Shown here one piece after another: positions 36,115 through 38,774 of a DNA stretch of 64,000 nucleotides (its first letter is position 1; each line of letters begins with the position of its first letter). Source of the DNA: Escherichia coli (GTDB taxonomy: Bacteria > Pseudomonadota > Gammaproteobacteria > Enterobacterales > Enterobacteriaceae); the NCBI RefSeq assembly GCF_041248615.1, contig NZ_CP158426.1. One strand, given 5' to 3'. The translations under genes were made by a program, and so were the position numbers. The notes beneath the pieces are model-generated. The model was not told the DNA's origin. It did not search any database and saw nothing but the letters and a program-made list of their open reading frames with translations.

Positions 36115-37080
36115 TCATGAGCGCCATTTAAAATTACCATCCTGAATATCATATGACAATATATTTTCACTAAAGCATGAATTGTATATGTCTATTAACT
36201 CTGGAAAATTATCAGGATTCACCTTCAAATTCACTTGAATGTTACGCTTAATTTCACCCAGCAGTTCTTCATGTGTGGATTTTATTATCCCTTTCTCATA
36301 ATCGATAAATACACACATGTTCTTTATGAATTCAAAACCTTTTCCTGTATACAGTTTAATGAATGCCACCAGAGCAAACATTTCAAGATATAGCCATAAT
36401 GCCACGTTAGTTTTTTGTAAAGTATAAAAAATTGAATTCGCCACTCTTTTACTTATTGCTCTTTTATACTGTGATCGGGCAAGATTCAGTAGCGGAAGCT
36501 CTCGTTCAATAAATGAATGTGAAAAGACTGGATAAATTGATGTAGGAAACCTTTCAGGTCTTATGATATTTTCTATTTCCACCATAAATCTATCCATAGA
36601 AAGAAAGTCACTTTCTTTTTTTATTCTGGTATAGAGACCGCCTTTATTCCTTTCTGAGGTTTGTTTTCGTGCTATCCCCCCCAACACTTTCTCTAATTGT
36701 TTATTTATCTTCGTATAATTAAATACAACCATTCTTCTTATCATCCTCGGAAGGATAATAATATCAGTGCTTGAATCACTTGAGCGGCAATTATTATTTA
36801 TCCATGCAACTTCAAGTTGCAGTATCGGAACATTAACTTTTCTGGGGTGAATATCTCTCTGATATCGTTTTTTGTATGCGTTTTCATTAAGATATTCTCT
36901 GCTGTAGAGAAACTTATAGCAATATAATCTGATAATATCTTTTATGTAAAATTTAAATAGTTCACCTGTAACAGATATATGTTTTCTGCTAGACTGGCCC
37001 CATGAATCTCCAGACAACCAATATCACTTAAATAAGTGATAGTCTTAATACTAGTTTTTAGACTAGTCATTGGAGAGCAG

Positions 37081-37446
37081 ATGATTGATGTCTTAGGACC
37101 GGAGAAACGCAGACGGCGTACTACACAGGAAAAGATCGCTATTGTTCAGCAGAGTTTTGAACCGGGAATGAAGGTCTCCCTTGTTGCCCGGCAACACGGT
37201 GTGGCAGCCAGCCAGTTATTTCTCTGGCGCAAGCAATACCAGGAGGGAAGTCTTACTGCTGTGGCCGCAGGAGAGCAGGTCGTTCCTGCCTCTGAACTTG
37301 CTGCTGCCATGAAGCAGATTAAAGAACTCCAGCGCCTGCTCGGCAAAAAAACGATGGAAAATGAACTCCTTAAAGAAGCCGTTGAATACGGGCGTGCAAA
37401 AAAGTGGATAGCGCACGCGCCCTTATTGCCCGGGGATGGGGAGTAA
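37081..37446 (+). CDS. insC: IS2 transposase OrfA (InsC)
   Basis: [30 protein letters not shown]... matches IS2 InsC; start taken at the internal Met of the track ORF. Confidence 0.9.
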
Positions 37447-38309
37447 GCTTAGTCAGCCGTTGTCTCCGGGTGTCGCGTGCGCAGTTGCACGTAATTCTCA
37501 GACGAACCGATGACTGGAAAGATGGTCGCCGCAGCCGTCACTCAGATGATACGGATGTGCTTCTCCGTATACACCATGTTATCGGAGAGCTGCCCACGTA
37601 TGGTTATCGTCGGGTATGGGCGCTGCTTCGCAGACAGGCCGAACTTGATGGTACGCCTGCGATCAATGCCAAACGTGTTTACCGGATCATGCGCCAGAAT
37701 GCGCTGTTGCTTGAGCGAAAAACCGCTGTACCGCCATCGAAACGGGCACATACTGGCAAAGTGGCCGTGAAAGAAAGCAATCAACGATGGTGCTCTGACG
37801 GGTTCGAGTTCCGCTGTGATAACGGAGAAAAACTGCGAGTCACGTTCGCGCTGGACTGCTGTGACCGTGAGGCACTGCACTGGGCAGTCACTACGGGCGG
37901 CTTCGACAGTGAAACAGTACAGGACGTCATGCTGGGAGCGGTGGAACGCCGCTTCGGCAACGAGCTTCCGGCGTCTCCAGTAGAGTGGCTGACGGATAAT
38001 GGTTCATGCTACCGGGCTAATGAAACACGGCAGTTTGCCCGGATATTGGGGCTTGAACCGAAGAACACGGCGGTGCGGAGTCCGGAGAGTAACGGCATAG
38101 CAGAGAGCTTCGTGAAAACGATAAAGCGTGACTACATCAGTATCATGCCTAAACCAGACGGGTTAACGGCAGCAAAGAACCTTGCAGAGGCGTTCGAGCA
38201 TTATAACGAATGGCATCCGCATAGTGCACTGGGTTATCGCTCGCCACGGGAATATCTGCGGCAGCAGGCCAGTAATGGGTTAAGTGATAACAGGTGTCTG
38301 GAAATATAG
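37404..38309 (+). CDS. insD: IS2 transposase OrfB (InsD)
   Basis: 301 aa matching IS2 InsD. Confidence 0.9.
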
Positions 38310-38774
38310 GGGCAAATCCATCTGCTCAGTAACTCCTGTGTATTAAGCCATTCCCGTGACCGAAGCACACCCTTGTGAAAACTTTTTCTTACTTGCTTTG
38401 AAGCACGCCATTGATGTAATATTTTTGCGTCCTCAATAATTCTCTTTCCCGTTTTATTTTTTGCAGCATCTCTTACTCTATAAAATATCTCCCAGTCCAG
38501 ACTTTTGTCATATCTACTAATTATACGACAAATATTCCTGACCCGACGATTCTCTTTATTTCGCTTCCATAGCTTATAATGATCATCGCATAACCTTAAG
38601 GCATTTGCCTCATCAAATTCTGAAACAGGATTACTGCATTTTTTATTCCGACAGATACCTTTGTTTTTAGCCATACTCTTCTTCCCGTCAATGGAAAAAT
38701 TTTCACACCCATATTACCTGAATGATAAACCGGATTAGTGTGATCCGGTTCAGTGAAATCAACAGGATACCGGT

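Follow-up and report, generated by a model that had tools for sequence, protein, structure and literature searches.

The stretch of the Escherichia coli genome analysed here, 64,000 nucleotides (nt) of contig NZ_CP158426.1 (assembly GCF_041248615.1) that are henceforth termed the window, holds a gene that has been broken in two by an IS2-type insertion sequence (IS), and this gene and its protein are here named X. X belongs to a small family restricted to Enterobacterales, without a detectable relative in sequence or fold, and in one clade of CP4-44/CP4-57-like integrative islands this family is a fixed, though hypervariable, constituent. These descriptive points—a pseudogene of IS2-type origin and a family that is both fixed and hypervariable in a single island clade—can be held with high confidence. 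As to its role, X may be an island-intrinsic, polymorphic regulator or specificity factor that binds nucleic acids, a proposal made tentatively and one that may well prove wrong. The question matters as islands of the CP4-44/CP4-57 type are among the commonest accessory elements that E. coli and related bacteria carry, and their backbone (YeeP-like GTPase, WYL regulator, DUF932, antirestriction, RadC and CbtA proteins) is essentially unexplained.

A gene split by an IS2-type element

The interrupted gene and the element within it are arranged as follows, with coordinates referring to the window:

36115–36989, minus strand: 3′ part of X, from codon 117/118 to codon 407 plus the stop codon, encoding the helical core; from the listing of open reading frames (ORFs) and the reconstruction.
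36985–36989: left copy of the TCTGC target-site duplication, 5 bp.
36990–38320, plus strand: IS2-type (IS3-family) element of 1331 bp, recognised by its imperfect terminal inverted repeats, the annotation of the Prokaryotic Genome Annotation Pipeline (PGAP) and its copies in E. coli.
38321–38325: right copy of the TCTGC target-site duplication, 5 bp, inside X codons S117/R118.
38326–38674, minus strand: 5′ part of X, codons 1–116 plus 1 nt, with the start codon at 38672–38674; from the ORF listing and the reconstruction, and given by PGAP as a pseudogene fragment.

When the element and one copy of TCTGC are removed, and 36115–36989 is joined to 38326–38674 on the minus strand, the result is a single ORF of 1224 nt, i.e., 407 codons without an internal stop, which reads ...NTQELLSR/KHISVTGELF... 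across the junction (marked by the slash). An initial annotation of the window had predicted a frame of about 407 codons with this very junction, and the prediction holds: the reconstructed X matches, with 100% identity across its 1224 nt, uninterrupted genes of four genomes that are annotated with the product WP_001107219.1, a 'hypothetical protein', and it is 99% identical to UniProt Q1R2M8 (UTI89, uncharacterised). Both of the latter copies are intact, whereas that of the window is split. The further stops, or the homology to a housekeeping or transposase family, for which the frame had been marked to be checked, were not encountered.

The element itself conforms to insertional inactivation by IS2 of the IS3 family in all respects: it is ~1.3 kb long, has terminal inverted repeats (TAGACTGGCCCC.../TGGATTTGCCCC...), is bounded by the 5-bp duplication and carries overlapping orfA/orfB-type ORFs (37036–37446 and 37404–38309) for an intact transposase, described by PGAP as 'IS3 family transposase, programmed frameshift'. 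Nothing about it is unusual for IS2, the only differences being that the PGAP name is the generic 'IS3 family' and that the E. coli copies are mostly 95–99% identical to it rather than identical (thousands of copies lie at 95–100%, and 4881 of 5426 complete genomes have a match). Its GC content of 52.7% is far from that of X (33.5%). The locus is thus a pseudogene created by an IS2-type insertion into X; both halves are already pseudogene fragments in RefSeq, the copy is inactivated and its function is lost in this strain. The dead allele is in itself of no consequence save as a record of IS2 activity.

Elsewhere in the species X is seldom broken. At least 80% of it is present in one piece in 968 of the 5426 complete E. 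coli genomes (~18%), only about 7 genomes of 975 are without a copy contiguous to at least this extent (i.e., fewer than 1% of the E. coli copies are broken), and the exact protein occurs on at least 1000 contigs. Two alleles of type A (one of the allele types described below) differ with a ratio of nonsynonymous to synonymous substitution rates (dN/dS) of 0.27. From this ratio and the rarity of non-contiguous copies it follows that X really codes for a protein, is subject to purifying selection and is functional in most strains.

An orphan family at a fixed place in one island clade

X is catalogued yet uncharacterised, as the initial annotation had surmised, and in both sequence and fold its family stands well apart from all that is known. 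No significant match was obtained in Pfam (with the single protein, all alignment members or the N-terminal sub-alignment), NCBIfam or PADLOC, nor any in the PDB by sequence and profile searches; the sole match in PHROGs was insignificant, and two further profile searches returned nothing outside the family. In PADLOC-DB v2.0, no family was matched by X of type A, B or C, or by the protein that partners type C (see below), at E-values up to 0.1–1. When 1.84 billion representative proteins were scanned exhaustively with HMMER, X had 25 matches, all of them family members or fragments, and the AFDB50 matches given by Foldseek were without exception uncharacterised proteins, of E. coli, Klebsiella, Salmonella, Serratia, Providencia and Lelliottia. 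In the literature, searched by accession as well as by the names of island genes, no study of X turned up.

The family can be defined by a core signature together with its place in the island, and X of the window has both. The signature consists of the W109-type 'SREWxNTQ', an LEV strand, PxxIRR, GxY, LPLxxL...R, LExFA and the C-terminal YNSxFS; W109, Y139, V177, P197, Y236, P282, L286 and E319 are invariant across the family, and E176, R293 and Y385 nearly so. The place is set by the following neighbours:

32674–32907, minus strand: AlpA-like helix-turn-helix (HTH) gene of the same module as the YfjJ-like gene, from PGAP and from tblastn with the AlpA proteins of loci L003, L005, L006 and L009 (61–73% identity).
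33920–34651, minus strand: YfjJ/YagK-like ('inovirus Gp2 family') gene, bounding the slot of X on the side away from the GTPase.
35733–38699: variable cassette, comprising X, 25 bp upstream of its start codon and ~380 bp downstream.
38700–38774, plus strand: conserved promoter/leader of the GTPase operon, outside the cassette, from an alignment of the intergenic regions of 12 loci.
38775–39659, plus strand: YeeP/YfjP-like GTPase of 294 aa with an Era/EngA-type G domain, first gene of the island backbone operon.

Thus X sits between the YfjJ/YagK-like gene and the YeeP-like GTPase and is much more AT-rich than its flanking genes (33.5% against 51–53% GC), both as initially noted. More generally, the cassette lies next to the AlpA/YfjJ module and directly precedes the conserved promoter of the GTPase operon, from which it usually diverges. 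The order YfjJ–X–GTPase is colinear in 961 of the 968 X-carrying E. coli genomes. The wider backbone, of the CP4-44/CP4-57-like kind, runs YfjJ/YagK-like Rep, AlpA, YeeP-like GTPase, WYL regulator, DUF932, antirestriction, RadC, CbeA/CbtA and DUF4942, an order that agrees with the annotation of the window and with its intact counterpart L001, and such a backbone also surrounds the homologues of X in other genera. These homologues, 22–37% identical to X, come from Klebsiella, Citrobacter and four metagenomic loci, and they adjoin a YeeP-like GTPase in every locus examined for which the flank is available. Usually the two genes stand head-to-head with a gap of ~100 bp, followed on the side of X by AlpA—directly after X in the other genera—and the YfjJ/YagK-like gene; in one lineage the X homologue is co-directional with the GTPase and lies just after the integrase.

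This association is confined to a small part of the diversity of the islands. A census was made of 80 GTPase loci from a collection in which each species is represented by a single genome. Genes of the X family are present there only beside the five GTPases with an identity of at least 52% to that of the window; the sixth-closest locus (L083, GTPase 51% identical) has in place of X a ribbon-helix-helix (RHH) protein, here termed Cp, and the remoter GTPase clades of the census yielded no member of the X family. Nor were relatives of X found in INPHARED phages, PLSDB plasmids or IMG/VR. By flank match, up to about one in three complete E. coli genomes has an island with a YeeP/YfjP GTPase.

Within the clade the cassette is swapped wholesale. 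In blastn comparisons of the IS-free window with loci L010 and L011 the DNA is 95–97% identical to the right of 38700 and 84–86% identical to the left of 35728–35732, and between these flanks (35733–38699) none of it can be aligned; correspondingly, the GTPases are 94–95% identical and the X proteins only ~24%. Across 28 pairs the divergence of X is uncoupled from that of the GTPase (Spearman rho 0.02). Each of the alternative cassettes examined in the island clade encodes a very divergent X homologue, ~20% identical, beside the YeeP-like GTPase. Type B (376 aa) retains the N-terminal zinc-ribbon-like motif described below and is recognised as an X homologue by hhalign with a probability of 98.7%; type C (310–320 aa) is without it, is recognised with a probability of 88%, and is accompanied by a tail-to-tail partner, Cp, of 269–284 aa with a C-terminal RHH-like segment. 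The cassette types have thus been exchanged between nearly identical flanks. The initial annotation had spoken of a variable slot, and this stands in so far as the segment is recombinationally exchanged; the implied assortment of cargo does not, every cassette examined in the island clade having a member of the X family.

Cp might be suspected of being a cryptic X homologue, a notion rejected by hhalign (probability 0.1%). Among islands without X, it is a Cp homologue that most often stands upstream of the GTPase (19 of the 80 loci). The family spans 269–360 aa (e.g., L011 3942–4751, L014 3765–4574 and L016 3308–4162; in L023–L093 just upstream of the GTPase) and gives weak RepA/CopG-type matches in NCBIfam and no match in Pfam or PADLOC. 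In the 1.4-kb gap downstream of X in the window no remnant of AlpA or Cp was found.

Integrative islands are known to have polymorphic cassettes. What stands out is that one island clade always has a member of an orphan family at its control region, selected to remain intact yet swapped as mutually unalignable alleles, a pattern that usually marks a specificity determinant in genetic conflict. From it come three kinds of allele, A, B and C (the last together with its partner), as well as a delimited promoter/leader region, all open to experiment.

What X might do

The N-terminus of X bears the pattern that had initially been likened to a zinc ribbon:

38576–38653, minus strand: zinc-ribbon-like motif, residues 8–33 of X, C8-x4-C13-x15-C29-x2-H32, then Y33.

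The likeness is upheld by conservation: the four putative ligands are arranged as two knuckles, C8-x4-C13 and C29-x2-H32, of zinc-ribbon or treble-clef type, and C8, C13, R27, C29 and H32 are invariant in all 15 of the aligned sequences that bear a zinc ribbon, with N24 varying. In an AlphaFold2 (AF2) model the region forms a short beta hairpin and a helix, with a predicted local distance difference test score (pLDDT) of ~88. The N-terminal sub-alignment matched no Pfam zinc-finger family, and the module is duplicated in homologue P0020. A basic helical linker of low confidence (about residues 45–100) connects it to a confidently predicted core, whose blocks over residues 101–146 and 171–400 mostly have a pLDDT of 81–94, weakening around 201–230 and 261–280. 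The model is thus mostly alpha-helical save for the small N-terminal hairpin. X is markedly basic, with an isoelectric point of 9.8 and 77 lysines and arginines against 45 aspartates and glutamates. These features make nucleic-acid binding plausible, as do the pairing of the ribbon-less type C with the RHH-bearing Cp and the presence of Cp homologues upstream of the GTPase in other island clades. Further, no NTPase or obvious catalytic motif was found in the sequence, and the invariant residues are mostly hydrophobic or aromatic, for which reasons X is probably not an enzyme.

Two other ways of construing the core were rejected. The hydrophobic helix at residues 312–330 might be taken for a transmembrane segment; it contains the invariant E319 and is a high-confidence helix of the predicted helical core. 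The residues E176/D192 might be taken as part of a PD-(D/E)xK nuclease site; they are not conserved in the type B or the 15-sequence alignments.

On the tentative proposal made at the outset, X would be a non-enzymatic nucleic-acid binder—composed of a zinc ribbon at the N-terminus, then a basic helical linker and a ~300-aa helical core—that works for the island itself, as a polymorphic factor of specificity or regulation, with its diversity maintained by conflict with phages or competing elements, and in type C the zinc ribbon would have been replaced by the RHH-bearing partner Cp. Such an island-tied role is favoured by the confinement of X to one island clade and its want of an effector-like domain, and also by the conserved zinc ribbon, the basic charge and the RHH partner that would take the place of the ribbon in type C. 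As an example, X might act as a sensor-repressor of the island control region by analogy with the Stl-type proteins, the master repressors of the staphylococcal pathogenicity islands (SaPIs). X resembles Stl in being an island gene at a divergent control region by an excision/replication module, in seemingly combining a small N-terminal module of DNA-binding type with a larger C-terminal part that varies greatly between islands, and in being confined to its own element family. It differs from Stl in having no sequence or fold similarity to it and a zinc ribbon rather than an HTH; moreover, no operator co-variation is seen, no inducer or helper element is known for the X islands, and DNA binding by X is putative.

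A number of observations weigh against the proposal. First, no homology lends support to any activity of X; Foldseek of the model against the PDB returned nothing, with the search made on the whole chain only, such that a domain-level match may be missed; and the model, built on a 15-sequence alignment, is only moderately confident overall (mean pLDDT 76.5, predicted template modelling score 0.64). Second, the zinc ribbon, on which the idea of nucleic-acid binding partly leans, is wholly absent from type C. Third, two features of the family are as typical of defence genes: its strong polymorphism between conserved flanks, and its AT-richness in all lineages (28–44% GC as against 45–56% for the adjacent GTPase). 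To these may be added that in CP4-57 of E. coli K-12 the analogous interval between yfjJ and yfjP, with abpAB, yfjM and rnlAB, includes genuine defence genes. Fourth, the control region shows no sign of being matched to the allele. The cassette ends 25 bp upstream of the X start codon and the other 75 bp, by the GTPase, are flank that is conserved across cassette types A, B and C. Within this flank the box (G/T)ATAT(T/C)A(T/C)C recurs in 66 of 81 GTPase loci across Enterobacterales, with or without X, and it is therefore not an operator specific to X but belongs to the promoter/leader of the GTPase operon. With the 75 bp conserved across the types and the box present in clades without X, there is no sign of allele-specific operators co-varying with X, and a classical repressor/operator model is thereby weakened.

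The leader in the window includes the box TTTTCACAC-C-CATATTACC (38700–38718) and a hairpin, AACCGGAT..ATCCGGTT (38728–38750). The ATATTACC box between X and the GTPase was considered as an operator specific to X and rejected, the box and hairpin occurring regardless of X. The box is often preceded by TTTCAGAC and, in L018–L097, lies ~60–120 nt upstream of the GTPase start. A leader hairpin of −10 kcal/mol or stronger is present in 53 of the 81 loci, with pairing kept while the sequence differs between clades, and a T-rich, terminator-like tail is found in 37 of the 81; the hairpin of the window has no T tail. Such a leader suggests that the backbone operon is controlled by attenuation or antitermination. 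X must be transcribed from or through the same 38700–38774 region on the opposite strand, for which TAATAT, the reverse complement of the box, could provide a −10 element.

The chief alternative is that X is an anti-phage protein, or one of defence against or exclusion of other mobile elements, acting alone or as the variable sensor or specificity subunit of a system with the GTPase, the alleles being swapped in an arms race. Such a role had been raised as possible by the initial annotation; it gains no direct support, with no PADLOC match, no effector-like domain and no occurrence outside the island, and it is kept as a rival that is unlikely though to be taken seriously. Besides the hypervariable cassette between conserved flanks and the AT-richness in every lineage, it can draw on the K-12 interval, which holds abpAB as well as the rnlAB named there, and on the wealth of defence cargo in related islands, including type I restriction-modification, McrBC, TIR, BREX-like (BrxR/methyltransferases) and SmaI systems. 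Further, residues 185–289 in the C-terminal part of the GTPase have a weak PADLOC match to the dynamin-like LeoBC of Eleos (E = 4e-7, 27.5 bits, ~100 residues), the strict adjacency of X and GTPase is compatible with a two-component system, and the conservation of the intergenic DNA across X allele types keeps a defence or exclusion role alive.

Against this, none of the X types has a PADLOC match, nor does X have a recognisable effector domain or conserved catalytic-looking residues. Whereas known defence genes move among phages, plasmids and many hotspots, X was not found outside its island position in any of the collections searched, and the occurrence of the GTPase operon in many island clades without X means that the operon does not depend on it. 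The slot does resemble the yfjJ–yfjP interval of CP4-57 and the defence hotspots of P2/P4 in being a variable, AT-rich segment between conserved genes with recombination in the flanks. However, those hotspots hold unrelated and mostly recognisable systems, whereas in the X slot there is, in all islands of the clade, just one orphan family. In the related islands the recognisable defence cargo sits beyond YfjJ or beyond DUF4942, outside the X slot, and YfjP of K-12 is only 35% identical to the GTPase of the window.

A more specific claim cuts across the regulatory and the defensive accounts, namely that the X family is a polymorphic sensor or specificity determinant of these islands, a very common 'cryptic prophage-like' kind among the enterobacteria, either as a Stl-like master regulator or as an immunity module of new fold (X alone or with the GTPase). 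In the Stl-like variant the variable core of X would recognise different phage or plasmid proteins and thereby trigger excision or transfer of the island. This claim is rather doubtful; if true, it would provide a functional handle on the YeeP/YfjP GTPase islands.

That X is a mere passenger, an AT-rich ORFan silenced by H-NS that evolves fast and hitch-hikes with the island, such that its disruption by IS2 was neutral, is quite improbable. It would account for the extreme divergence between the X types and for the failure to detect a function, and in the window X is indeed broken without a compensating feature in an island that is already decayed. It is countered by the dN/dS of 0.27, by the more than 99% of E. 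coli copies that are contiguous and by the position of X, kept in every island of the clade. Likewise, the length and the invariant residues, including the four putative zinc ligands, have been maintained down to ~20% identity across genera, and the core is confidently folded in the AF2 model.

Finally, the idea that X represents a diverged member of a named enzyme family is effectively refuted: the labels 'Reverse transcriptase' (one UniRef entry, a Klebsiella relative) and 'HNH endonuclease' (two AFDB relatives) are unfounded, as neither X nor any of the 15 aligned members matches a reverse transcriptase family in Pfam, the YxDD-like FIDY (in the stretch FIDY...LKVNP, which with the UniRef name had prompted the idea) is not conserved, the Cys/His pattern only superficially resembles the zinc-binding motifs found beside HNH domains, the His-Asn-His triad of an HNH/His-Me finger is not conserved (H32 alone being invariant), no HNH match was obtained in Pfam or PDB profiles, and the mostly helical model matches no palm or beta-beta-alpha-Me fold in the PDB or AFDB.

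Decay and other features of the island in the window

The island in the window is decayed, with pseudogenes for the WYL regulator and the ProQ protein and with ISEc31, IS66 and other insertion sequences. The WYL gene beside the GTPase (39862–40542) is a pseudogene with an internal stop according to PGAP, and the ProQ/FinO-family gene (31322–31830) is frameshifted. In strain AR_0085 the same internal stop in the WYL gene and the same frameshift in the ProQ gene are annotated, yet X is intact.

Two copies of ISEc31, an element of the IS3 family (in the regions 10027–11729 and 40690–42231), both interrupt the island backbone. One truncates a 225-aa backbone gene after the WYL gene (40690–40980), and the other (10516–11729) abuts antirestriction and JAB/RadC genes ~30 kb away, which suggests that an IS-mediated rearrangement split the backbone. 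A match to the Rfam family 'isrC', an Hfq-binding small RNA (sRNA), at 41050–41172 (150 bits, E = 2.8e-37) falls inside the left end of ISEc31 (~41018–42231), suggesting that this family represents an IS end and not an independent sRNA gene.

Upstream of the YfjJ-like gene lie ~1.08 kb of non-coding DNA (34652–35732), conserved at 84–97% in other strains, in which no Rfam match or convincing repeat structure was found. The region has a pronounced strand bias, being A/C-rich on the plus strand with an AT skew of up to +0.37 and a GC skew down to −0.34, and could be a promoter, a replication origin or an origin of transfer (oriT) for the Gp2-like Rep. In some strains a gene for a 176-aa protein, WP_000778605.1, is inserted in it.

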